Source: an uncultured Sulfitobacter sp. (GTDB lineage Bacteria; Pseudomonadota; Alphaproteobacteria; Rhodobacterales; Rhodobacteraceae). From it: DNA of 64,000 nucleotides. Under the pieces are notes generated by a model that made no database searches, was not told the origin of the DNA, and was given only the letters and a program-made list of their open reading frames with translations. Both the position numbers and the translations under genes were made by a program. The stretch covers positions 3,644 to 67,643 of the forward strand of contig CAXBKL010000001.1 of assembly GCA_963976125.1 (NCBI GenBank), given 5' to 3'. Position 1 is the first letter of the stretch; every line of letters starts with the position of its first letter. This document shows positions 1-10,593 of the stretch, piece by piece.

Positions 1-710
1 TTTTTGGCAAATGGCGCGAACCGGGGATCACCGGCAACGAAGACGGCCACGGCGCGGTCAGTCCCGTTCAATGCGCGCAGTTCAGCGTTCCAATAGGGGT
101 TTTGCAGGAATCGGCAATCATAAATCATGTCGACCGATCGGGGCAGTCCGCGTTTGTAGGAAAACGACTGGACCGAAATCGTCAGGTGATGTTGTCCCGA
201 GGGCGCGAACCACTGTTCGATTTCAGCACGCAGTTGATGTACATTCAGGTCCGTCGTGTCGATCAGGACATCCGCACGGGTGCGAATCGGGCGCAAAAGC
301 TCTTGTTCCCGCCGGATGCCGTCGGCCGGGCGGCCCTTGGGGGCAAGCGGATGCCGGCGGCGGGTCTCAGAAAACCGGCGCAGCAGGGCGTCGGAGGCGC
401 AATCCAGATAGAGCAGTTCAGCGCGCACATCATCGCGCGCCGACAGTCGCAGGATCAGCTCCAGCACCCGGTCAGTGGCAAAATCACGGTTGCGCGCGTC
501 TATGCCCAACGCCAGCGACCGGTCAAATTTGGCATGATCCAGCAGCGCCGGCAGCAGACGGAGCGGCAGATTGTCTATGGTCTCGAAACCGGCATCCTCC
601 AACACATTCAGCGCAGACGACCGGCCCGCACCGGACGGCCCGGTGACAAGCACGATACGGCGTCGACCATCCAGGCCGGACGCCGGTGCACGGGTTGAAG
701 AAGCGTTCAT
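1..710 (-). CDS. rapZ: RNase adapter RapZ (YhbJ/YvcJ family P-loop protein), 3' end truncated by window edge
   Basis: Not in ORF track. Manual minus-strand translation from ATG 710: MNASSTRAPASGLDGRRRIVLVTGPSGAGRSSALNVLEDAGFETIDNLP...SFSYKRGLPRSVDMIYDCRFLQNPYW. ATGA overlap with the hprK stop. Confidence 0.9.
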   Translation of the reverse strand, partial: MNASSTRAPASGLDGRRRIVLVTGPSGAGRSSALNVLEDAGFETIDNLPLRLLPALLDHAKFDRSLALGIDARNRDFATDRVLELILRLSARDDVRAELLYLDCASDALLRRFSETRRRHPLAPKGRPADGIRREQELLRPIRTRADVLIDTTDLNVHQLRAEIEQWFAPSGQHHLTISVQSFSYKRGLPRSVDMIYDCRFLQNPYWNAELRALNGTDRAVAVFVAGDPRFAPFAK

Positions 711-1138
711 GACCCGGAACTTATGCCCTTGCCCAGATAAAGCAACAACGCGGCGGCGAAATGCGGGCTTGGGGCGTTATGCAGGCAAGGCAGCGTGACC
801 CCGAGCAGATCATAGTGATGCGGTTCCGGCAGCCGTTGGTGTTCAGCCCTTGAAAGGTCCACGACCAGATTCAGCGCAGTTGGGCCAGCGGCGTCCAGCT
901 TCAGGATGCCAACGCCACGCGCCTCGATCATTCCGGCGATGGTGCCCGGTACCGTGGCGATGACCCTTTGGCCCGATCGTTCCACCCGTGTGCGGTCATC
1001 GGCCACCAGCCGGGCCCCCAGGCTGATCAACTGGAGCGCAAGCGAGGATTTCCCGGATCCTGACGGCCCTAGGATCAACATTCCTTGCCCCGATAGGCTC
1101 ACCGTGGTGGCGTGGATAATTTCGCTGGGGTTGGTCAT
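707..1138 (-). CDS. hprK: HPr kinase/phosphorylase, short alphaproteobacterial type
   Basis: IHATTV...LILGPSGSGKSSLAL...LVADD, EARGVG motifs; conserved position downstream of chvG. Confidence 0.88.
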   Translation of the reverse strand: MTNPSEIIHATTVSLSGQGMLILGPSGSGKSSLALQLISLGARLVADDRTRVERSGQRVIATVPGTIAGMIEARGVGILKLDAAGPTALNLVVDLSRAEHQRLPEPHHYDLLGVTLPCLHNAPSPHFAAALLLYLGKGISSGS

Positions 1139-1165
1139 TCCGGGGGCCGCCGGGAGGGGCGCAGT

Positions 1166-2869
1166 TTATGTTGGCAGGCCGACGACAAAACGGGCACCCA
1201 GTGGGTCAGAGGTGATGTCGGCCTCTGTCGGGCGGATGTTCTCGGCCCAGATCACGCCGCCATGCGCCTCGACGATCTGTTTTGAAATCGCCAGGCCCAG
1301 TCCGGAATTATTACCGAAATGCTCGTCCGGGCGTTGTGAATAAAAGCGTTTGAATATCTTTGACAGCGCCTGTTCGGGGATACCGGGGCCAGTGTCTTCT
1401 ACCACGACCAAGACGCGGTTCTGGCGTTTACGTACCCAGACACGGATTGCATCCCCGTCCTCGCAGAAAGAGATAGCATTGGTTATCAGATTGACAAAAA
1501 CCTGCGCCAGCCGGGCTTCCAGCCCGTGAATGGTAATCGGTTGATTGGGCAGGTCAGTGATGAAATCAATGCCTTTGGATTTCGCATCTTCGCCCAGATA
1601 CTGACCCAGGTTGCCAACCATCTTGAGCAGGTCGAATTCTTCTTCTTCTTCCTTGACCAGTTCCGAATCAAGCCGCGACGCGTTTGATATATCGCTGACC
1701 AGCCGGTCGAGGCGGCGCACATCATGGTCGATCACATCCAACAGCTTTTCGCGCTGATCGTCGCGTTTGACCATGCGCAATGTACCAACAGCGGAGCGCA
1801 GGGAAGCCAGCGGGTTCTTGATTTCATGTGCCACATCTGCGGCAAATTGTTCGTTCCCGTCGATCCGGTTGTAAAGCGCGGAAACCATGCCACGCAGCGC
1901 GCCCGACAGCCTGCCGATTTCGTCGGGGCGTGCGGTAAGATCGGGGATGCGGATCGGGCCGGGGTTCACCTTGCGCGCGTCCTTGTCGCGGCCCAGCTCT
2001 GCGGCGGTGGCCAGATCAGAGAGAGGGTTTGCAATGGTCGATGCCAGTACGAGGCTCAGACCGATGGACACCAGCGTTGCAATCACAAACATCTGCAAAA
2101 CCCGTTCGCGTTCGCCGCGGACAAGGCTGTCGATCTCTCCTGCCACCGATGCGATGGCAACCACACCGACGGGCGTCGCCCCCTGCATGATCGGTGTCAG
2201 AACTGTGAACTGCGTGCCACCATCGGCATCCAATGTATTTTCTATCTGTGTGCCGCTCTCAAGGCTGCCTTGCACTAGCGACTTCAGCCGTTCCTCGATT
2301 GTGATTGCCGACGCGGGCTCCTGCTTGCTGCTGAACGGTATCGACACCTTCGTCCAGACCCAGCTCAATCCATCGGTAAGCCATGTCCGGCCTGCATTTT
2401 CCGGTGCCGCCGCAATGCTATCCAGGGCAAGGCTGCCTTTGGAGCGGGCAATCAGCGCACTGGTTGTGTCATAGACAAAAACATCAACGCCCCGTCGAAG
2501 GTCCAACCCTTCAAGCGTCATGGCCGCATCAACGCCATCGCCCGTGGCGAGGTTGACAGGTGCACCTGCGGGCAATTGGGCCTCGATCACGTCGGCGACC
2601 AGTTCCGCTTCGGAAACCAACGCCGCGGCACGTTGCACGGCAAGCGAATCGCGGGCGGAATTCAGATAGAGAATACCAGCAACCAGAACGTTCAACGCAA
2701 TCAGGTTAAAGGTGATGATCTTGCGGGTCAGAGGAGACGCCCGGAGCGAAAACAGGCCACGCCGTTCCCGGCGCGCACGGACCTCGTCCGTCCCGCTCTT
2801 GTCGGGCGCGACCCAGTCATCGCCAAAAACAACATCGTTGTCTTTTGGTGTTTGGCTCAGATCGCGCAC
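1166..2869 (-). CDS. chvG: Sensor histidine kinase ChvG/ExoS
   Basis: Two TM segments, HAMP, H-box ADVAHEIKNPL, N/G1/F/G2 boxes. GTG start at 2869 chosen from the AGAGGAG RBS. Confidence 0.92.
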   Translation of the reverse strand: MRDLSQTPKDNDVVFGDDWVAPDKSGTDEVRARRERRGLFSLRASPLTRKIITFNLIALNVLVAGILYLNSARDSLAVQRAAALVSEAELVADVIEAQLPAGAPVNLATGDGVDAAMTLEGLDLRRGVDVFVYDTTSALIARSKGSLALDSIAAAPENAGRTWLTDGLSWVWTKVSIPFSSKQEPASAITIEERLKSLVQGSLESGTQIENTLDADGGTQFTVLTPIMQGATPVGVVAIASVAGEIDSLVRGERERVLQMFVIATLVSIGLSLVLASTIANPLSDLATAAELGRDKDARKVNPGPIRIPDLTARPDEIGRLSGALRGMVSALYNRIDGNEQFAADVAHEIKNPLASLRSAVGTLRMVKRDDQREKLLDVIDHDVRRLDRLVSDISNASRLDSELVKEEEEEFDLLKMVGNLGQYLGEDAKSKGIDFITDLPNQPITIHGLEARLAQVFVNLITNAISFCEDGDAIRVWVRKRQNRVLVVVEDTGPGIPEQALSKIFKRFYSQRPDEHFGNNSGLGLAISKQIVEAHGGVIWAENIRPTEADITSDPLGARFVVGLPT

Positions 2870-2902
2870 AAAGCTCCTCTCGGCCAAGGCCATTTGCCCG
2901 GT

Positions 2903-3604
2903 TTACTCTTCGTTATAGCGATAGCCGATACCGTAGAGTGTCTCAATCGCGGAAAAATCATCGTCCGCGCTGCGCATCTTCTTGCGCAGACGTTTGATAT
3001 GGCTGTCGATGGTGCGATCATCCACATAGACCTGATCGTCATAGGCCACGTCCATCAACTGATCTCGCGATTTCACAAATCCGGGGCGCTGCGCGAGTGC
3101 CTGCAACAGCAGGAATTCCGTTACGGTCAACGAGACGTCCTTGCCCTTCCAGGCGACGGCGTGCCGCAGAGGATCCATGCGCAGATCGCCGCGCTCCATC
3201 ACCTTGGTTTCTTCGGTATCGCCGACTTCACCACTGTCCACCGCGTCCTGACGGCGCAGCAAGGCGCGAATACGCTCGACCAGAAGCCGCTGGCTAAAAG
3301 GTTTCTTGACGTAGTCGTCCGCGCCCATCCTTAGGCCGAGCACCTCGTCAATCTCGTCATCCTTGGAGGTGAGAAAGATCACCGGCATCGTCGTCTTCTG
3401 TCGAAGCCGCTGCAGCAAATCCATGCCATCCATGCGCGGCATCTTGATGTCAAGTACCGCCATATCAGGGAGTTTCTTATTGAAGGCGTCCAATGCGGCC
3501 TGACCGTCATTGTAGGTTTCCACTTCGAAACCTTCCGCTTCCAGAGTCATCGACACAGACGTCAGGATATTCCTGTCGTCGTCCACCAATGCAATTTTTG
3601 ACAT
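2903..3604 (-). CDS. chvI: OmpR-family response regulator ChvI
   Basis: IALVDDD...VLDIKMP...FLTSK...KPF receiver; winged helix [20 protein letters not shown]; upstream of chvG. Confidence 0.93.
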
Positions 3605-3976
3605 TGCCTGTTTCCTTCGTGCTGCTCAATTATCGTTTTTTGTATTTTGAACCATAGATCACCATTTTTTGCATTCGAATCAATCTCTAAGTGCGAATCA
3701 GCCCGTCGTCGGACCCTATTTCCGCCACAATTTGGTTAGGAATGGCTAAATTGCCGCACTTTCTTACCCTTCGGGGCGTGGGCCGTGACGCTCCTTTTGG
3801 CCCGTCGAACCCGCACAGGGCCAAAGTTTGCCATGATGGCGCTAACGACCATTGACCCGTCTGTTCAATTGCAAAACCATCGTGTTAAGAGGCGCTTTAT
3901 GACCCTAAAGGGTCGCGGGCGATCCGCCCGGTTCAGCCAGACCAGCACGGCACCGTGCGCCTACAGGAGAATTCAC

Positions 3977-5575
3977 ATGACATCTGGACGGGTAAACCCG
4001 CAGTTCCGCCTTGAAGATCAAAAGATCAACGGGTTGGGCAATGTCTATTACAACCTGATGGAACCTGCGCTGATCGAAACCGCGCTCAAGCGTAACGAGG
4101 GGGTGCTTGGCAACGGCGGCGCATTCCTTGTCACCACAGGCAAGTTCACCGGTCGGTCCCCAAAGGACAAGCATGTGGTACGTACCGACAGCGTAAACGA
4201 CACCATCTGGTGGGATAACAATGCCGAAATGTCCCCCGAAGGTTTTGATGCCCTTTATGACGACATGATCGAACACATGCAGGGCAAGGACTATTTTGTA
4301 CAAGACCTTGTCGGCGGCGCGGACCCACGCCACGCAATCAACGTGCGCATGGTGACGGAACTGGCCTGGCACGGGCTTTTCATCCGAACGATGCTGCGCC
4401 GCCCGGAGCGCACGGATCTGGATGATTTCATCGCTGACTTCACTGTCATCAACTGTCCCAGCTTCCAGGCCGACCCCAAGAAACACGATTGCCGTTCCGA
4501 AACCGTCATCGCGATGAACTTTGATCGCAAGATGATTCTGATTGGCGGCACGGAATACGCGGGCGAAAACAAGAAATCCGTTTTCACCCTCCTGAACTAC
4601 CTGCTGCCCGAAGAGGGCATCATGCCCATGCACTGCTCTGCCAATCACGCAACCGGGAACCCGGTCGATACTGCCGTGTTCTTTGGCCTGTCAGGGACCG
4701 GCAAGACAACCCTTTCCGCCGACCCGCAGCGTACGCTGATTGGTGACGACGAACATGGCTGGTCCAACAACGGCACCTTCAATTTTGAAGGGGGTTGCTA
4801 CGCCAAGACGATCAACCTCTCTTCCGAAGCCGAGCCGGAAATCTATGCAACCACGACCAAATTCGGCACCGTTATCGAGAACATGGTCTTTGACGAAGAA
4901 ACCAGGGAACTGGACTTCGAAGATGATTCACTCACCGCCAACATGCGCTGCGCCTACCCGCTGCACTATATCTCGAACGCCTCGACAAAGGCGCTTGGCG
5001 GGCATCCGAAGAACATCATCATGCTGACTTGTGATGCCTTTGGCGTACTGCCTCCCATCGCGCGGCTGACACCTGCCCAGGCGATGTATCACTTCCTGTC
5101 CGGCTTCACCTCAAAGGTGGCCGGCACAGAGCGGGGGGTAACAGAACCCGAACCGACATTTTCAACCTGTTTCGGCGCGCCGTTCATGCCGCGCCGCCCA
5201 GAGGTTTATGGCAATCTGCTGCGGGAGAAAATCGCCCAGCACGGCGCAACCTGCTGGTTGGTGAACACCGGGTGGACCGGTGGCGCATATGGCACCGGAT
5301 CCCGCATGCCGATCAAGGCAACCCGCGCATTGCTCACTGCCGCCCTGGAAGGCGCGCTTGGGTCAGTGGCCTATCGCAAGGATCCCAATTTCGGGTTTGA
5401 GGTGCCGGTTGCCGTAGAGGGCGTTCCAGACATCCTGCTGGACCCGCGCCGCACATGGGACAACCCCGAAGCCTACGACAGGCAAGCCGCCAAGCTGGTG
5501 GCAATGTTCTCGGACAACTTCGCCCAGTATTTGCCATTCATTGACGATGATGTGCGGGCCGCCGCAATCAGCTGA
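3977..5575 (+). CDS. pckA: Phosphoenolpyruvate carboxykinase (ATP)
   Basis: [31 protein letters not shown]. Start at ATG 3977 after a CAGGAG RBS. Confidence 0.96.
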
Positions 5576-5594
5576 GCCCGGCAGATCAAAACAG

Positions 5595-5634
5595 AGAAAG
5601 GGAGCCGCAACACACTGCGGCTCCCTTTCTTTTT
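5595..5634. terminator. Intrinsic terminator, probably bidirectional
   Basis: AGAAAGGGAGCCGCA-acacac-TGCGGCTCCCTTTCT followed by a T run, between convergent genes. Confidence 0.85.
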
Positions 5635-5652
5635 GGAAAAACCTTCGGTAGG

Positions 5653-6372
5653 TCAGGCGGCTTCTTCGACCAGATCCTCCACCGGAATGTCCAGCATGTA
5701 GCGGGCATCTTCCTGGCTGAGCCACGTCAGAAAAGCCTCGATGGGCTGTTCATGGCCATCAACCTGCCACTTCAGCGCGCCGGGTTCATTGTGCATATAC
5801 CCCATCCGTTCGGCGAACCCCTTGAAGGCCACTTTGCGCAACATGAACCCATAGATATAGTCCGGATCCCAGCGCCGCATCGCCTCAAGCAGTCCAGTGC
5901 GTGCCAGCACGGTCGAAAGGCCGACACCGCGATAGCACCCCTTTTCGGGCGGGGCCATCCACACCTCACCGTGATAGACGACATTGCCTGCAATCTGATG
6001 TGCGCCCGGTGTCGCCCGGAAGCGTGATCTGTTGATGTCCACACCCGGAAGCGGCGGTGGAAAGTCCCGGAACCGGGTGAGAAGATGCGCTGCCAACGTC
6101 TTTCCGCCCAAAGGAACTTTTTTCGCCGCTTGTGTGTGAATCAGGTCACCTTTGCCGTTTCTGCCGATCAGCCAGAACGAATCTCTGGGTCGCAAATTGT
6201 GTTTGGTGTGGTCAAACGGCACCCCCAGATTCTGCATTTTGCGTTCGCTGTGGATAATTTCACTGTATTGCTCGAAATCACTGCCAATGGTGATCTCGAT
6301 ACCGTGGGACCGCAAGATATTGCGACTGGTCGCAATAAACGGAGCGGCGTCCTGCGGGAACTGAATCGTCAT
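5653..6372 (-). CDS. Hypothetical protein, possible GNAT/acyltransferase-like fold
   Basis: 239 aa with AAGGA RBS. VYHGEVWM...YRGVGLSTVLAR...GFAERMGY resembles the GNAT motif A (RGxG) region. No family firmly recognised. Confidence 0.7.
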   Translation of the reverse strand: MTIQFPQDAAPFIATSRNILRSHGIEITIGSDFEQYSEIIHSERKMQNLGVPFDHTKHNLRPRDSFWLIGRNGKGDLIHTQAAKKVPLGGKTLAAHLLTRFRDFPPPLPGVDINRSRFRATPGAHQIAGNVVYHGEVWMAPPEKGCYRGVGLSTVLARTGLLEAMRRWDPDYIYGFMLRKVAFKGFAERMGYMHNEPGALKWQVDGHEQPIEAFLTWLSQEDARYMLDIPVEDLVEEAA

Positions 6373-6482
6373 TCGTACTGTCCTTACTACCTACCATGGC
6401 AAAAGGTTAATACAAACGCCGCCAAAAAGCCCGTGCTTTGGCCAAGTTATGCCCAAAAAATGTCACAATTGCGCCTAAACAC

Positions 6483-6497
6483 TTAAAAATGGGTTAA
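6483..6497. promoter_or_regulatory. CtrA-type box TTAA-N7-TTAA
   Basis: TTAA-AAATGGG-TTAA, about 110 nt upstream of the ATG at 6372; extra GGTTAA half-site at 6405-6410. Confidence 0.55.
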
Positions 6498-7441
6498 TCG
6501 GCATGGTTGAGAATGCTGCTTTCAAACCGCGCATCCTCTACTTTGAAGGGAATCGGTTCCACCGGATCAAGCGCCTCAAGCTCGGATGGGTCGAGCCCAG
6601 AGATGCGTACAGCGTCCACTGGCAGGACAAGTGACATCACCGCAGGAGAGCGATCGGGAAAGAACCCGCTGAGGATCAACCGTTGATATGCGACCGGCGC
6701 CAGGTCGTCTGTTCCCGACCGAGGCATCCTCGTGAACACATGATCCAGGCGGGCAGTTTGCGTCGCCTGCACCTCGTCAAACGACTGATAAATCAAATGT
6801 GAAAATTCCTCACCTGCGGGCATCTGGCTGATGGGTCTGCCAATGCTTGACCGGGCAAAATCCTGCCCAAACCAGTTCACGTAGACAGACTTCTGTCCGA
6901 ACTCGACACATATCCATCCCGCTTCCGCCTTGCGGTAAATGATCAAATAGGGGCGCACATGCGAAAAGGCCGGGCTTTCGATTTCGCCCGCCGCCATCGA
7001 CCAGGATCGAAATGTCTCTCGCAAGAGCACGGACGGGTCAGTCCAGATCAATCCAAGTGGCTGTTGCTCCTGATAAAAATCCCATGATCCAACTGTTGCC
7101 TTGAGATGCTGGAGGTGGCCGATTGAGCTAGATTGCCCGCGCAACCAGGTCGTTCCCCGCGCCAGAATATCCTTTGCATCCGGCAGCGCGTTTTCCCCCG
7201 CGACGGTCAGGTAATACCGGCGGTCGTCCACGTAGAACAACGGCACGCCCATCGCGTCTTCCAGGGTGGAGATATGGCGTCGTACGGTTTGGCGGGTGCT
7301 GCCCAGATCTTTTACCGCATGGCTCAGGTTAAGCGTTGCCGCCAGAGTGACAAACGAGCGGATCATCTCGAACAACAACCCCGGAGTCACATTTGTATTG
7401 GCAGGAAAGACTGCGGTCTTGAGGTCGATCGTCTTGTTCAT
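6494..7441 (-). CDS. LysR-type HTH fused to a non-LysR, PAS-like C-terminal domain
   Basis: N-terminal MIRSFVTLAATLNLSHAVKDLGSTRQTVRRHISTLEDAMGVPLF...LTVAG is an HTH_1 pattern; the C-terminus ends in YQRLIL...PAVMSLV, which is PAS_5-like. Start placed at ATG 7441. Confidence 0.75.
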   Translation of the reverse strand: MNKTIDLKTAVFPANTNVTPGLLFEMIRSFVTLAATLNLSHAVKDLGSTRQTVRRHISTLEDAMGVPLFYVDDRRYYLTVAGENALPDAKDILARGTTWLRGQSSSIGHLQHLKATVGSWDFYQEQQPLGLIWTDPSVLLRETFRSWSMAAGEIESPAFSHVRPYLIIYRKAEAGWICVEFGQKSVYVNWFGQDFARSSIGRPISQMPAGEEFSHLIYQSFDEVQATQTARLDHVFTRMPRSGTDDLAPVAYQRLILSGFFPDRSPAVMSLVLPVDAVRISGLDPSELEALDPVEPIPFKVEDARFESSILNHAD

Positions 7442-7482
7442 GTCATCTCTTTGATACACGTCTCGCCACCAATGCAACATTA

Positions 7483-7515
7483 ATCATACAGTAATAGTAA
7501 ATGGATCATACAGTA
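7483..7515. repeat. 11-bp direct repeat ATCATACAGTA x2, 22-bp period
   Basis: Copies at 7483-7493 and 7505-7515 in an AT-rich divergent promoter region. Confidence 0.8.
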
Positions 7516-7634
7516 GGGTAACAATTATCACCCATCAACGGTTCATTTACACGTCAAAAGTGAATATATGTAGATAATTGAACGAAAACGGGAATTTGAC
7601 GATCACTACCCTCACACCAACCAGGGGTAGGAAT

Positions 7635-7994
7635 ATGGCTCATCCGGTAGACACGCATGTGGGGCGCAAGCTCAAACAAATCCGTACGCTGCGTCGTTTG
7701 TCTCAGACAGACGTGGCGCGCAAACTCAATCTCTCTTTCCAGCAGATCCAGAAATACGAAATTGGGTCAAACCGGATTGCTGCCAGCCGTTTGTTTGAAT
7801 TGGCACAGATCCTGGATGTAGCGCCGAGCTACTTCTTCGAGGGATTGAACGACAATACCAACGTGCCTCCCAAGAACGACCCCGGCATGGAAATCGTATC
7901 AGCCCTTGCCTCGATCAAGGACGACGCGGTCAAGACCCGGATTGTTACCTTTATCCAGGACGTATCGGGCATGACAGTGGCCAAGCGCAGCTAG
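7635..7994 (+). CDS. XRE/HTH_3 regulator, PraR/PhrR-like
   Basis: MAHPVDTHVGRKLKQIR...SQ...LSFQQIQKYEIGSNRIAASRL is the family signature; AGGA RBS before ATG 7635. Confidence 0.85.
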   Translation: MAHPVDTHVGRKLKQIRTLRRLSQTDVARKLNLSFQQIQKYEIGSNRIAASRLFELAQILDVAPSYFFEGLNDNTNVPPKNDPGMEIVSALASIKDDAVKTRIVTFIQDVSGMTVAKRS

Positions 7995-8755
7995 AACACG
8001 GCCCGCCGGATCAGGTTCAATCCGGCGACAAGCAGAACCAGCAGCGTCGCGCGGCGGAACGCTGTCTGGTCAATCCGGTCCATCACCTTGCTGCCGATCC
8101 ACATACCAATGAGCGCCGGCCCTATCATCGCCACCGAAAACGGCAGGGTTTCTTCGCGCAGCACACCTGACCCGATGTGGGACGCAAACAAAAGCGCCGA
8201 ACCGCCGCCATAGATCACCCCCTGAATACGGATTTGATCATACTTGGGTGTGTTCAACGCCGTCAGGTAACTGACCGTTGGCGGGCCCCAGACGCCCGAG
8301 ATACCGGCCAGCACACCTGCGAATCCTCCCACAGCCGCTTCCAGCCCCCATGTCTTGTTTGAGATGTGGAACATATGGCCGGACAACTGCCACACAGCAA
8401 AGAACACGACGGGGATACCGATCACCAGTTGCATCGTCTGCTCGGGAATGACCCGCACAAATTGTGCCGCAACAACAAGTGTGGTTCCCCCGGCGGCAAG
8501 GAACACCCAGAACGTCTTGACGGTTTTCCACGCCTCCGCGTACCCCTGACGCAACGATTGCAGCACATTGCTGACAAGCGTCGGCAGAATCAGTCCCGCC
8601 AGTGCAAGGTCCGGCGCGATGAACGTCGTGAGGCCAGAGATCATGACCAACGGCATCGCAAACCCCACGACACCTTTGACGAATCCCGCACAAAACGCGA
8701 TGCCGAGGGCAACCGCAATCAAGGGCGGCGTAAGAAACGGGATAATCAGGTCCAT
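7991..8755 (-). CDS. Sulfite exporter TauE/SafE family membrane protein
   Basis: Multi-TM; AGFVKGVVGFAMP and GGFAGVLAGISGVWGPP repeats. Confidence 0.85.
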   Translation of the reverse strand: MDLIIPFLTPPLIAVALGIAFCAGFVKGVVGFAMPLVMISGLTTFIAPDLALAGLILPTLVSNVLQSLRQGYAEAWKTVKTFWVFLAAGGTTLVVAAQFVRVIPEQTMQLVIGIPVVFFAVWQLSGHMFHISNKTWGLEAAVGGFAGVLAGISGVWGPPTVSYLTALNTPKYDQIRIQGVIYGGGSALLFASHIGSGVLREETLPFSVAMIGPALIGMWIGSKVMDRIDQTAFRRATLLVLLVAGLNLIRRAVF

Positions 8756-8895
8756 AGCCCTACATAGCAGGATGGTCTTGGACTGCATTATCTAACGGTG
8801 GCGTAATTATCGAACAAAACGCCGCAGCAAAAAGTATCTTTGTTGTGCTGCACCTGCAAAAAGGCTATCCGCTGGCCAACGCTGAAAAGGGGATT

Positions 8896-10593
8896 ATGAC
8901 AATGGCACATGACGGTCAGGACGTGAAACAAATCCAGACATCTGTAATTCTGGACAACCTTCTGACGCTCACCGGGGCGGCGGTCGGGCCGGTTCAGGGC
9001 ATCCTTGAAAAAGCGACCGCCCGCGTGCGCGAAACCGTAAGCGCCAATGGCCGCGTCTCCGCCGATCTGATTGAGCGGCATCAAACCGCCGCACATGGCC
9101 TTGCCTGGCTGGCGACCTATGCGCAGGCTCTGGAGCAGATGCAGAAATGGGCCGTGGCTCTGCAGGCAGAGGGCAAATTCAACGAGACCGAACAACTGAT
9201 CCACCAGATTGCCTTTGGGGAATACCTTTGGCAGATCTACGGCGGCATTCAGATGAACCAAGGCGAGATATTGCGCCTGCAAGACCTTGGCCTGAGCCAG
9301 GACGATATGCGCGGGATGATGGATGATGCGGTCACAGCCCTGACCCAGGGCGGCAACACACAGGACGCCCGGACACGTCTGGTCCAACTGATGCAGGAGC
9401 ATTCGGCCAACATCAGCGTCGGTGCGACCGGCCTTGATGAAGAGCTGGAAATGATTCGCGAGCAGTTTCGGCGCTATGCCGTCGAAAAGGTGGAACCCTT
9501 TGCTCATGACTGGCATCTCAAGGATGAGCTGATCCCGATAGAGGTAATCAACGAGCTTGCGGAAATGGGGGTCTTTGGCCTGACCATCCCGGAGGAGTTT
9601 GGCGGCTTCGGCCTGTCCAAGGCGTCGATGTGCGTGGTGTCCGAGGAATTGTCCCGAGGCTATATCGGGGTTGGGTCATTGGGCACCCGATCCGAAATCG
9701 CGGCGGAATTGATCATCGCGGGCGGCACGGACGAACAGAAGGCCAAATGGCTGCCCCGGATCGCCAGTGCCGAAACATTGCCCACCGCCGTCTTCACCGA
9801 GCCGAACACAGGTTCGGACCTTGGATCGCTGCGCGCCCGCGCGGTCAAGGACGAGAATGGCGATTACAAGGTCACGGGAAACAAGACCTGGATCACCCAT
9901 GCCGCACGCACCCATGTGATGACGTTGCTGGCCCGCACCGACCCTGCAACGGACAATTACAAGGGACTGTCGATGTTCCTTGCGGAAAAGACACCCGGCG
10001 ATGACGCGGACCCCTTTCCCACCGACGGCATGACCGGAGGAGAAATCGAGGTGCTCGGCTATCGCGGCATGAAGGAATACGAGCTTGGCTTCGACAACTT
10101 CCATGTGAAAGGTGAGAACCTGTTGGGTGGAGAAGAGGGCAAAGGTTTCAAACAACTGATGGAAACCTTCGAATCCGCGCGCATTCAAACGGCGGCACGG
10201 GCCATTGGGGTTGCCCAATCCGCGCTGGACATATCCATGCAGTACGCCCAGGACCGCAAGCAATTTGGCAAAGCCCTGATAAACTTCCCACGGGTATCGT
10301 CAAAGCTGGCGATGATGGCGGTCGAAATCATGGTGGCGCGCCAGTTGACTTACTTCTCCGCGTTCGAGAAGGATGAGGGCCGCCGATGCGATGTCGAGGC
10401 CGGGATGGCAAAGCTCCTGGGCGCCCGTGTCGCCTGGGCGGCGGCGGACAATGGGTTGCAAATTCATGGCGGCAACGGGTTTGCCCTTGAGTACAAGATC
10501 AGCCGCGTATTGTGTGACGCACGCATCCTGAACATCTTTGAAGGTGCTGCGGAAATTCAGGCGCAGGTCATCGCCCGCCGCATTCTGGGTTAG
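8896..10593 (+). CDS. mcd: Acyl-CoA dehydrogenase, probably (2S)-methylsuccinyl-CoA dehydrogenase of the ethylmalonyl-CoA pathway
   Basis: ACAD motifs FTEPNTGSD, GNKTWIT, QIHGGNG, IFEGAAEIQ; long N-terminal extension starting MAHDGQD, as in Rhodobacteraceae Mcd. Start is 8896 or 8902. Confidence 0.8.
   Translation: MTMAHDGQDVKQIQTSVILDNLLTLTGAAVGPVQGILEKATARVRETVSANGRVSADLIERHQTAAHGLAWLATYAQALEQMQKWAVALQAEGKFNETEQLIHQIAFGEYLWQIYGGIQMNQGEILRLQDLGLSQDDMRGMMDDAVTALTQGGNTQDARTRLVQLMQEHSANISVGATGLDEELEMIREQFRRYAVEKVEPFAHDWHLKDELIPIEVINELAEMGVFGLTIPEEFGGFGLSKASMCVVSEELSRGYIGVGSLGTRSEIAAELIIAGGTDEQKAKWLPRIASAETLPTAVFTEPNTGSDLGSLRARAVKDENGDYKVTGNKTWITHAARTHVMTLLARTDPATDNYKGLSMFLAEKTPGDDADPFPTDGMTGGEIEVLGYRGMKEYELGFDNFHVKGENLLGGEEGKGFKQLMETFESARIQTAARAIGVAQSALDISMQYAQDRKQFGKALINFPRVSSKLAMMAVEIMVARQLTYFSAFEKDEGRRCDVEAGMAKLLGARVAWAAADNGLQIHGGNGFALEYKISRVLCDARILNIFEGAAEIQAQVIARRILG

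Follow-up and report, generated by a model that had tools for sequence, protein, structure and literature searches.

A predicted GNAT-fold protein of an unnamed alphaproteobacterial family, encoded beside a sensor-like regulator: a putative small-molecule acylation unit

The window analyzed here, a stretch of 64,000 nucleotides from an uncultured Sulfitobacter sp., contains a gene for a 239-aa protein (X), which is preceded on the same strand by the gene for a 315-aa partner protein (Y) and, beyond that, by a divergently oriented gene for an XRE-family regulator (Table 1). Since X has 138 full-length homologues of approximately 238 aa (47 to 95% identity) without frameshifts, we judge from these sequences that its ORF is a real gene, a chance ORF being excluded. 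The intrinsic terminator is strong; it is a palindrome that starts 23 nt past the X stop codon and is set back-to-back against the pckA end (position 5575). Alignment of six orthologous Y-X intergenic regions revealed a conserved block, TTGTATTAACC, at positions 6405 to 6415, with a -10-like TATTAA at 6407 to 6412, and ACGGG was also conserved in this region. A consensus sigma-70 scan of positions 5500 to 7700 found no promoter, and no -35 match occurs upstream of X, so that the conserved block may be an activator-dependent promoter of X. Besides, fragments of transcripts covering X were present in three metatranscriptomes, on short contigs for which an origin from DNA is possible, and one metatranscriptome fragment ends at position 6395, inside the Y-X intergenic region. 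The X gene carries a conserved upstream block and a terminator of its own. In the divergent intergenic region between Y and the XRE gene, the element ATG-nn-TGAT recurs and is, like a palindrome of sequence CAATTG, strongly conserved among five orthologous regions; both are candidate operators.

Table 1. Positions of the features at the X-Y locus, numbered from the first letter of the window
Feature	Position	Strand	Description or basis
X, 239-aa protein with predicted GNAT fold	5653..6372	minus	ATG-to-stop ORF; founding member, in the window, of an unmodelled family
VYHGEVWMAPPEKGCYRGVGLSTVLARTGLLEAMRRW, X residues 132-168	5869..5979	minus	β4 - loop - motif A - α3; coordinates, conservation
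YHGEVW, β4 of X	5959-5976	minus	coordinates
RGVG, X residues 148-151 (R148-G149-V150-G151)	5920-5931	minus	motif A; coordinates, conservation, Naa30 alignment
GFAERMGY, X residues 185-192	5797-5820	minus	α4 end and β6 start (GNAT motif-B region); conservation, model
Shine-Dalgarno sequence of X, AAGGA	6381-6385	minus	8 nt upstream of ATG
Intrinsic terminator of X	5595..5630	minus	16-bp stem with 9 GC pairs, then T-run
Y-X intergenic region	6373..6493	minus	alignment of 6 orthologous regions
Y, 315-aa partner protein	6494..7441	minus	ORF open up to 7480; LysR-type HTH and C-terminal domain
XRE-Y divergent intergenic region	7442..7634		alignment of 5 orthologous regions
XRE-family HTH_3 regulator, 119 aa	7635..7994	plus	listed ORF from 7578; orthologues begin at internal Met

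The preliminary description of this DNA regarded X as an orphan. On the contrary, a profile search with the X family matched at least 929 clusters (50% identity) at E ≤ 1e-3, and X belongs to a large, unnamed, alphaproteobacterial family. No Pfam GNAT model matched X even at E ≤ 10, and searches with X against Pfam and NCBIfam, as well as by phmmer against PDB sequences, brought no meaningful match. Likewise, none of the Pfam and NCBIfam models could be assigned to 119 diverse relatives, and no Pfam GNAT model passed its threshold; weak contacts appeared only in the E-value listing, with one of the 119 touching Acetyltransf_1 (E = 0.0013) and another Acetyltransf_7 (E = 0.008). X therefore falls outside the curated GNAT sequence models (Pfam Acetyltransf_1/7/10 and related). 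A literature search yielded no paper on the X family or the X-Y module and no biochemical data for any member. The N-terminal extensions carried by a few members are of low complexity or of no recognized kind.

Conservation showed that the motif is no chance resemblance. Nine residues of X (R148, G149, G151, K184, G185, R189, G191, H194, and P197) were invariant in 51 homologues, and the R-G-x-G segment does not vary within the Roseobacter subfamily. Among 119 representatives of the whole family, which extend down to approximately 22% identity, R148 was kept in 84%, G185 in 97%, G191 in 94%, and Y192 in 84%. In the same set, the residues of β4 were highly conserved (Y133, 95%; H134, 85%; G135, 99%; E/D136, 91%; W138, 94%), and we regard them as candidate catalytic residues. 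The signature of the family over these representatives comprises F53, W67, Q81-A82, Y-H-G-E/D-x-W, W168-x-P-D, and W202.

We modeled X with AlphaFold2 (pLDDT 87.3, pTM 0.86) and compared the model with the PDB using Foldseek, which returned 163 matches at E ≤ 1e-3. The best 50 of these 163 were all GNAT acyltransferases, and the GNAT matches had a probability of 1.00 over 200 to 250 aligned columns at approximately 10% sequence identity, with modest TM-scores to solved GNATs (0.36 to 0.62 overall; 0.36 to 0.47 when normalized to the query). Enzymes acting on small amines (SpeG, AAC(6')-Im, PaiA, and PA3270) were found among the best 50, and protein N-terminal acetyltransferases (NatD/Naa40, Naa60, Naa30, and RimJ) were found among the best matches from Foldseek or profile searches. 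In a viral structure library (BFVD), X again resembled GNATs, and a phage LuxI was placed at rank 10 with a query-normalized TM-score of 0.35. Judged from the model and these matches, X has the mixed α/β fold of GNATs, a fold whose central sheet is split between β4 and β5 in a V-shaped cleft, and its R148-G149-x-G151-x-S fits motif A (R/Q-x-x-G-x-G/A), which binds the pyrophosphate of CoA, at the β4-α3 junction. Besides, a narrower family profile aligned YRGvG of X in register with YRGQG (within YRGQGIA) of Naa30 (E = 0.001). This match disappeared when a broader X-family profile was searched against the PDB; the sequence-level evidence for GNAT membership is thus marginal, and the case that X is a GNAT-fold protein rests on the predicted fold.

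The segment in which the preliminary description had seen the β4-RGxG-α3 and F/Y-x-x-x-G-F/Y patterns of GNATs proved to be a genuine β4, motif-A, α3, and α4 region, both in the fold comparison and in the alignment with Naa30, and the predicted GNAT fold and the conservation of RGxG among homologues agree with this reading. Its long N-terminal region of no recognizable family, on the other hand, turned out to be no separate domain; in the model and the Foldseek matches, this region corresponds to the N-terminal half of the GNAT fold (α-β-α-β-β), and a helix and a strand are inserted between β3 and β4. The β4-α3 loop is long and was modeled with lower confidence (pLDDT 64 for residues 141 to 150). 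The position of the usual α4 tyrosine general acid is apparently occupied by Phe-186, as judged from the Naa30 alignment.

Y is a regulator whose residues 25 to 83 form a LysR-type winged HTH (PF00126, E = 6e-11), followed by a linker helix. In Foldseek searches with full-length Y, the DNA-binding domain dominated, and the DNA-binding domains of LysR-type transcriptional regulators (LTTRs) were matched over 74 to 88 columns of the full-length proteins; the match of a Y profile to LTTRs in the PDB was likewise confined to residues 17 to 114. The C-terminal domain of approximately 190 aa belongs to no known family. Because the LysR effector domain is lacking (none of 22 Y proteins matched PF03466, even with a limit of E ≤ 10), annotation of Y as a "LysR family" protein is misleading. 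A relationship to Pfam PAS_5 was also considered, but no PAS family matched the 22 proteins at E ≤ 10. A profile of the C-terminal domain by itself found nothing significant among PDB sequences, the best matches being an anti-CRISPR protein (E = 0.59) and a GAF-containing protein (E = 2.2). The predicted topology of the domain is PAS/GAF-like; with no PAS or PDB sequence match, this label derives solely from the predicted order of secondary-structure elements, which suggests that the domain may be a sensor.

X abuts Y in all 58 loci first examined, which come from different bacterial orders (Rhodobacterales and several families labelled Rhodospirillales) and from different chromosomal sites, and the pair also occurs on plasmids of Roseibium and Azospirillum. 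An HMM of the Y C-terminal domain matched only the X-abutting ORF in 55 of the 58 loci, and in 38 of the 58 the gene next to Y encodes an XRE regulator; the XRE protein of the window shares 38 to 40% identity with orthologues in Pelagibius, Magnetovibrio, and locus L010. The adjacency of X and Y is strict, and the DNA-binding solution is variable. In proteins of approximately 300 aa, what precedes the C-terminal domain is, depending on the locus, a LysR-type HTH or an N terminus unrelated to it, and the domain is present twice in L010. In type-B loci, Y has no HTH, an XRE gene lies upstream, and X and Y are convergent with 3' overlaps of 18 to 150 bp.

Other neighbors vary with lineage. In roseobacters, the module occupies one syntenic site beside pckA and is vertically inherited across genera. 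One subclade has an MFS_1 transporter gene directly downstream of X (13 loci), metagenome-assembled genome OFTM364 contains two divergent modules (L017 and L032), and X is duplicated in tandem in Tateyamaria. X homologues on rhizobial symbiosis plasmids occur without Y and XRE, and in their vicinity lies ectB or a gene for an ATP-grasp ligase or a C45 enzyme; in Rhizobium bangladeshense, the homologue lies beside ectB, a position held in ectoine-type pathways by the GNAT EctA. This ectB/ATP-grasp context is that of distant homologues (27 to 29% identity), a group separate from the gene of the window.

Since X is found almost always beside its own sensor-like regulator, its probable role is to acylate a small molecule within a private regulatory circuit. 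We propose that X, as a member of a new, unmodelled GNAT subfamily, would catalyze the acyl-CoA-dependent N-acylation of a small-molecule amine that probably resembles an amino acid or a polyamine, and that the novel C-terminal domain of Y would sense the substrate or the product of X. A Y protein of the type in the window would then control transcription directly through its fused LysR-type HTH, and a Y protein without HTH would do so jointly with the neighboring XRE repressor-type protein. That X is a competent acyl-CoA-dependent small-molecule N-acyltransferase and forms a two-gene unit with a ligand-sensing transcriptional regulator is, in our estimation, a proposition with about an even chance of being right. 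The MFS_1 gene downstream of X and the ectB, ATP-grasp, and C45 genes near the rhizobial homologues are indications of small-molecule chemistry. As for the direction of sensing, it is possible but doubtful that Y senses the substrate of X, which would give inducible modification or export; sensing of the product, which would give an autoinducer-like loop, appears rather unlikely.

The same loci might be read as a quorum-sensing-like circuit, which we consider unlikely. X would make an N-acyl signal, either diffusible or exported, Y would be the receptor and transcription factor, with its PAS/GAF-like domain in the role of the autoinducer-binding domain of LuxR, and the XRE protein would be an RsaL-like brake, as in lasR-rsaL-lasI. 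The preliminary description had mentioned a possible acyl-signal synthase, a role with which so strict an association between X and a sensor-like regulator would be in keeping. Indeed, the GNAT fold is common to X, LuxI-type synthases, and N-acyl-amino-acid synthases, the pairing is one-to-one and without catabolic partners, and the module is self-contained, at unrelated chromosomal sites as well as on plasmids. The two modules of OFTM364, the tandem X genes of Tateyamaria, the MFS exporter in the 13 loci, and a third gene encoding a small HTH regulator also agree with such a circuit, as do the type-B loci, which resemble the convergent, overlapping pairs of the esaI/esaR type. However, a module for modification and efflux that is induced by its substrate would account for all these context features just as well. 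Furthermore, X has neither homology nor special structural closeness to LuxI, and the CoA-type motif R-x-x-G-x-G suggests the chemistry of an acyl-CoA N-acetyltransferase and not the LuxI-like use of acyl-ACP and SAM. The Roseobacter module, moreover, is vertical and stays at one site, whereas quorum-sensing loci are typically patchy. It is distinctly unlikely that X-Y(-XRE) represents an unrecognized family of cell-cell or host-microbe signalling systems in marine and plant-associated Alphaproteobacteria, i.e., an analogue of LuxI/LuxR/RsaL built from largely different parts. Such a system would comprise a new GNAT synthase, an N-acyl product, MFS export in some lineages, and a new ligand domain on a LysR HTH or with an XRE partner.

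We consider it improbable that X is a protein acyltransferase that modifies Y, XRE, another protein, or an N terminus and thereby tunes the regulator posttranslationally. An enzyme-substrate pair would also give strict X-Y adjacency, and NatD/Naa40, Naa60, Naa30, and RimJ are among the best matches of X, but its TM-scores to these Nat enzymes are no better than those to SpeG and AAC(6'). The MFS genes, together with the ectB, ATP-grasp, and C45 genes near the Y-less rhizobial homologues, suggest small-molecule chemistry instead, and a search for fusion proteins found none in which X is joined to Y, XRE, or other domains.

It is very improbable that X is a noncatalytic GNAT-fold ligand binder or that its donor is an aminoacyl-tRNA, as in enzymes of the Fem/L-F-transferase type, or an acyl-ACP. 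Such a role would agree with the lack of a canonical Pfam GNAT model for the family, with the replacement of the α4 tyrosine by phenylalanine in the Naa30 alignment, and with the long, low-confidence β4-α3 loop, but the pyrophosphate-binding R-G-x-G is strongly constrained, and no Fem, Aat, or LuxI-type structure was among the best 50 of the 163 PDB matches. A purely ligand-binding role in particular is disfavored, as judged from conservation, because the CoA-type motif and the β4 residues H134 and E/D136 are retained. Finally, the idea that X is a GNAT toxin of a type II toxin-antitoxin system or a defense system gained no support, since neither X nor Y had a PADLOC match, X is approximately 70 aa longer than toxins of the TacT/AtaT type, and the location next to pckA is shared by synteny and inherited vertically across Roseobacter genera.

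Phytoplankton have key partners in the Roseobacter group and related marine alphaproteobacteria, and small acylated molecules carry much of this interaction. Here, a protein family that previously had no representative in Pfam, NCBIfam, or the PDB has been defined, given a predicted fold and a probable cofactor, and tied, through Y, to an equally undescribed sensor-like domain, which results in a concrete two- or three-gene unit. Should X make a signal, this unit would be a new signalling system; should it instead yield a metabolite that is detoxified or exported, the unit would be a new inducible module for resistance or metabolite handling.

X shares the fold, motif A, and the "G-F/Y" region of α4/β6 with GNAT acetyltransferases (SpeG, AAC(6')-Im, PaiA, PA3270, Naa30, Naa40/NatD, Naa60, and RimJ), but is longer than these by approximately 60 to 70 residues, owing to an N-terminal helix, a long loop at residues 43 to 63, two C-terminal helices, and the β3-β4 insertion. 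LuxI-type AHL synthases have a GNAT-like fold and are strictly paired with a regulator consisting of a ligand domain plus HTH, as X is with Y, and some LuxI/LuxR loci and the lasR-rsaL-lasI layout resemble X-Y loci in having convergent overlapping pairs and a small extra HTH regulator. Nevertheless, X carries a CoA-type motif, no match to Autoind_synth (PF00765), the family with a conserved N-terminal Arg/Phe/Trp/Asp/Glu cluster, was found in X or its 119 relatives, no LuxI-family structure was among the best 50 of the 163 PDB matches, and the phage LuxI structure ranked no better than generic acetyltransferases. The earlier statement that X is not a canonical AHL synthase, made because the LuxI arginine/acidic motifs were not evident, therefore stands, and of the comparison with LuxI, FeeM, and other GNATs that accompanied it, the general GNAT relationship held, whereas a specific link to LuxI or FeeM did not. 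Y differs from LuxR in having a LysR-type HTH or none, with no GerE/LuxR HTH, and a putative ligand domain that matches no family, the autoinducer-binding one included. With LysR-type regulators, Y shares the N-terminal PF00126 HTH and the long linker helix, and its DNA-binding domain superposes on those of OxyR, CbnR, and CcmR at an rmsd of 1 to 2 Å; the approximately 190-aa C-terminal domain, however, takes the place of the periplasmic-binding-protein-like effector domain. In the X family, no match to NCBIfam EctA was found, and PF13444 (Acetyltransf_5; N-acyl amino acid synthase/OlsB-like) matched neither X nor its 119 relatives. In genomic position, the homologue of R. bangladeshense is like EctA of ectB-ectA-type operons, and we infer for X a chemistry akin to that of EctA and of the N-acyl amino acid synthases FeeM/NasY, in which an amine resembling an amino acid would be N-acylated.

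The open reading frame of X, a 239-aa protein, lay exactly where the preliminary description had placed it, and all of the motif strings quoted there were found in its translation. The ATG is preceded, at a distance of 8 nt, by an AAGGA ribosome-binding site, and the G+C content of the gene (0.567) is near the window mean (0.587). An AlphaFold2 model of X, based on a 51-sequence alignment (mean pLDDT, 87.3; pTM, 0.86), consists of alpha(9-21), beta(25-29), alpha(32-42), a long loop, beta(64-70), and beta(76-85), followed by alpha(92-102), beta(110-117), a short alpha, beta(130-138), and alpha(151-167), and then by beta(171-177), alpha(178-189), beta(193-203), beta(210-218), and two C-terminal helices (residue numbers are those of the model, one below the protein numbering). 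This predicted order is the GNAT order with a helix and a strand inserted before beta4. The long N-terminal region, previously left unplaced, is the N-terminal half of the same GNAT fold with insertions, and not a separate domain.

Foldseek comparison of the model with the PDB gave 163 matches at E ≤ 1e-3, the best 50 of which were all GNAT acyltransferases (among them NatD/Naa40, Naa60, AAC(6')-Im, SpeG, RimJ, PaiA, PA3270, YncA, and Ard1), over 200 to 250 aligned columns with TM scores of only 0.36 to 0.47 (query-normalised) and 0.42 to 0.62 (target-normalised). The BFVD library gave the same picture, again with GNATs. Besides, a profile of the Roseobacter subfamily of X matched the GNAT Naa30 (7l1k; E = 0.001) at positions 91 to 194, with yrGvGlst aligned to YRGQGIAT; this match was gone when the broader family profile was used against the PDB. 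R148, G149, G151, K184, G185, R189, G191, H194, and P197 were invariant in 51 homologues, and the earlier GNAT motif call stands, both in the predicted structure and in the conservation of R-G-x-G. The family signature, drawn from 119 representatives with identities as low as about 22%, comprises F53, W67, Q81-A82, and G129, Y133-H134-G135-E/D136-x-W138 and R148-G149 in beta4 and motif A, and then R158, W168-x-P170-D171, G185, G191-Y192, and W202.

The label "orphan" does not hold for X. Among 5.8 billion proteins, a word-indexed search identified 138 homologues (47 to 95% identity; nearly all 238 to 243 aa) from Sulfitobacter, Tateyamaria, Ascidiaceihabitans, Roseobacter, Marimonas, and marine metagenomes, all of which were unnamed or "hypothetical" and none of which carried a precomputed Pfam domain. 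When 1.84 billion cluster representatives were searched exhaustively with an HMMER profile, 929, 422, and 81 clusters matched at E ≤ 1e-3, 1e-10, and 1e-30, respectively, most matches being full-length and in proteins of 220 to 270 aa. No Pfam or NCBIfam family was reached by any of the 119 diverse representatives, with one isolated weak match each to Acetyltransf_1 and Acetyltransf_7. X belongs to a large family outside every curated model, and a literature search found no publication describing it. In Tateyamaria, two tandem X genes follow a single Y gene. In another locus (L057, 5835-6548), X is broken into four frame-shifted pieces, probably through decay or sequencing errors.

Coordinates of X, its partner Y, the regulator gene XRE, and related features (L numbers denote compared loci)
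Feature	Locus	Position	Strand	Remark
X	window	5653-6372	-	ATG start, 239 aa
VYHGEVWM...RRW in X	window	5869-5979		residues 132-168; as quoted earlier
RGVG in X	window	5920-5931		residues 148-151
GFAERMGY in X	window	5797-5820		residues 185-192
Terminator after X stop	window	5630..5595		16-bp stem, T-tailed; back-to-back with pckA end
pckA	window	3785-5575	+	downstream of X, convergent; GTG start, 596 aa
chvI	window	2903-3604	-	beyond pckA
chvG	window	1166-2893	-	beyond chvI
HPr-kinase-like gene	window	707-1138	-	beyond chvG
Y	window	6494-7441	-	annotated "LysR family"; upstream of X, co-directional
XRE/HTH_3 gene	window	7635-7994	+	119 aa, divergent from Y
TauE/SafE-family membrane protein	window	7991-8788	-	
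242-aa ORF	window	8788-9516	-	base 8788 common to it and TauE/SafE gene
Tandem X paralogues	L004 (Tateyamaria sp. ANG-S1)	5139-5855; 6001-6717		238 aa each, behind one Y; likewise L005
Y variant, 460 aa	L010	7736-9118	-	one LysR HTH, then two C-domain copies
X-Y 3' overlap, 59 bp	L006 (Pelagibius)	7671-7729		genes called independently
Other X-Y 3' overlaps	L011-L017, L019-L023, L032, L038, L045, L046, L054, L056			
Distant X homologue	L062 (pNGR234a)	227072-229202		plasmid
Distant X homologue	L067 (Rhizobium bangladeshense p3)			plasmid
Distant X homologue	L064 (Bradyrhizobium p53363)			plasmid

Window 707-5575 is the classic alphaproteobacterial hprK-chvG-chvI/pckA locus. The listed pckA ORF exceeds its 532-aa orthologues by 64 codons, and thus its true start is probably near 3977. 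The gene order around X-Y-XRE is kept across Roseobacter-group genera, and the trio occurs at unrelated sites in other orders (beside gyrB-recF-dnaN in Pelagibius) and was found too in Magnetovibrio and an unclassified contig, the XRE proteins of these three being 38 to 40% identical to that of the window over their full length. We fetched 47 species-level genome loci, all from Alphaproteobacteria (Kiloniellaceae, Rhodospirillaceae, Rhodovibrionaceae, Magnetovibrio, Thalassospiraceae, and several Rhodobacterales), and HMM-scanned them together with the earlier loci (n = 58). X was detected in all 58, a Y homologue adjoined it in all 58 (iterated model), and XRE adjoined Y in 38; clustering of all flanking ORFs gave no further universal partner. 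An HMM built from the Roseobacter Y C-terminal domain alone identified exactly one ORF per locus, always beside X, in 55 of the 58 loci, and matched no ordinary flanking LysR gene. The pairing of X with Y is strict, and a second HTH protein is recurrently associated with the pair.

Two arrangements were found. In type A, which includes the window locus, XRE is divergent from Y, and X follows Y on the same strand, with a gap of 3 to 160 bp in most loci. In type B, XRE and Y are paired on one strand, with X convergent to them, and the 3' ends of X and Y overlap by 18 to 150 bp, which implies overlapping antisense transcripts. Kiloniellaceae/Pelagibius species have modules of type A or type B, and one Rhodospirillales MAG (OFTM364) holds two divergent modules (L017 and L032). 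The TauE gene adjoins XRE only in Sulfitobacter-like loci and lies outside the conserved module; the 242-aa ORF next to it had no Pfam or NCBIfam match.

The Y of type A loci is a transcription factor, with a winged HTH (PF00126) and a linker helix like that of LTTRs. Its PDB profile matches end at about residue 114, Foldseek aligned only 74 to 88 columns with full-length LTTR structures, and no LysR_substrate domain was matched even at E ≤ 10. The public label "LysR family transcriptional regulator" is therefore misleading, since the LysR HTH is present and the effector domain is absent. In an alignment of 22 Y proteins, type-B Y had no HTH at all, and an unrelated N-terminal region (G-x-W-W-v-D-D-x-G-x-W) preceded the same C-terminal domain, with the motifs F-x-QQH, hh-VYR, IG-x-x-S, RLDH, and P-x-x-V-x-YQRLL-x(4-6)-DG-x-P. 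Because this domain is common to both forms, it is the invariant partner of X, DNA binding being fused to it or supplied by a neighbouring gene. Its predicted element order (beta-beta, four helices, beta-beta-beta; residues 167-274) resembles that of a PAS/GAF sensor. No PAS or other family match was obtained in this domain, and a domain-only profile gave nothing significant against PDB sequences; these C-terminal 190 or so residues are an undescribed domain family, occurring without an HTH too. In a Magnetovibrio MAG (L009, the same as L018; 3245-4173), Y is split over two overlapping frames, probably owing to decay or sequencing errors.

By footprinting, TTGTATTAACC at 6405-6415 in the Y-X spacer was invariant in six orthologous spacers, with a -10-like TATTAA inside it, a conserved ACGGG about 20 nt upstream, and no -35 consensus in the spacer. 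The divergent XRE-Y spacer (7442-7634) is conserved more strongly than the Y-X spacer, and above many coding stretches; its CAATTG palindrome and its ATG-nn-TGAT repeats, spaced by about two helical turns, are candidate operators. Short contigs of three metatranscriptomes matched X with 95 to 100% identity (5710-5909, 6118-6325, and 6239-6395), one of which stops 23 nt before the ATG (at 6395) and continues as adapter sequence; Y, XRE, and the pckA end were unmatched by them. This hints weakly at transcription of X from its own promoter, and the contigs may be DNA carry-over.

Transporter or small-molecule enzyme genes are lineage-specific neighbours of X. Thirteen loci forming one subclade (Thalassococcus, Boseongicola, Silicimonas, Aestuariicoccus, and others) have an MFS_1 transporter gene directly 3' of X; it overlaps the X stop codon by 4 bp in L049 and is separated from X by a short gap in the other loci, and most of the 13 are without a detectable XRE gene. 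A tblastn search for X on 72,556 plasmids gave 25 records. Homologues on rhizobial symbiosis plasmids (24 to 30% identity) lie within IS-flanked islets, one near nif genes; they adjoin an ATP-grasp ("biotin carboxylase family") enzyme in pNGR234a and R. bangladeshense, the latter with ectB upstream, and a C45-family enzyme in Bradyrhizobium. Neither Y nor XRE was found in the three rhizobial loci scanned (L062 to L064). Such islets may encode a small-metabolite pathway of symbiotic plasmids that has gone unrecognised. In Roseibium and Azospirillum, the plasmid copies of X converge with a Y gene (E = 1.8e-10 and 8.8e-12, respectively, with the C-domain HMM), and the Roseibium module has an XRE gene too.

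We infer that X would use acyl-CoA to acylate a small-molecule amine, that the Y domain would bind the substrate or product of X, and that Y and/or XRE would then set transcription of the module; we give this general model roughly even chances. Within it, substrate sensing by Y, with inducible modification and export, may be slightly likelier than product sensing, which would make an autoinducer-like loop, both being tentative. That X instead acylates a protein, Y or XRE, is improbable and ranks below the general model. X keeps a CoA-type P-loop motif, with a His and an acidic residue conserved on beta4, and a non-catalytic or non-CoA role is the least credible reading, again below the general model. 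The X-Y-XRE module is of moderate interest now, and would be of high interest if the signalling reading, in which X may be the acyl-signal synthase suggested earlier, were true.

Compared with known systems, X has the structural and motif features of the GNAT N-acyltransferase superfamily and falls into no described family within it. Family tests rejected membership in the FeeM/OlsB, EctA, and TA-toxin families, and sequence-family and structure comparisons rejected LuxI; the sole LuxI-type BFVD entry, from Roseobacter phage RDJL Phi 2, stood at rank 10 with a TMq of 0.35, in agreement with the earlier view that X is not a canonical AHL synthase. Y is only half an LTTR, and the three-gene logic of X-Y-XRE is like that of LuxI/LuxR/RsaL in outline only. 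X is a new GNAT subfamily within a new, widely conserved enzyme-sensor-regulator module.
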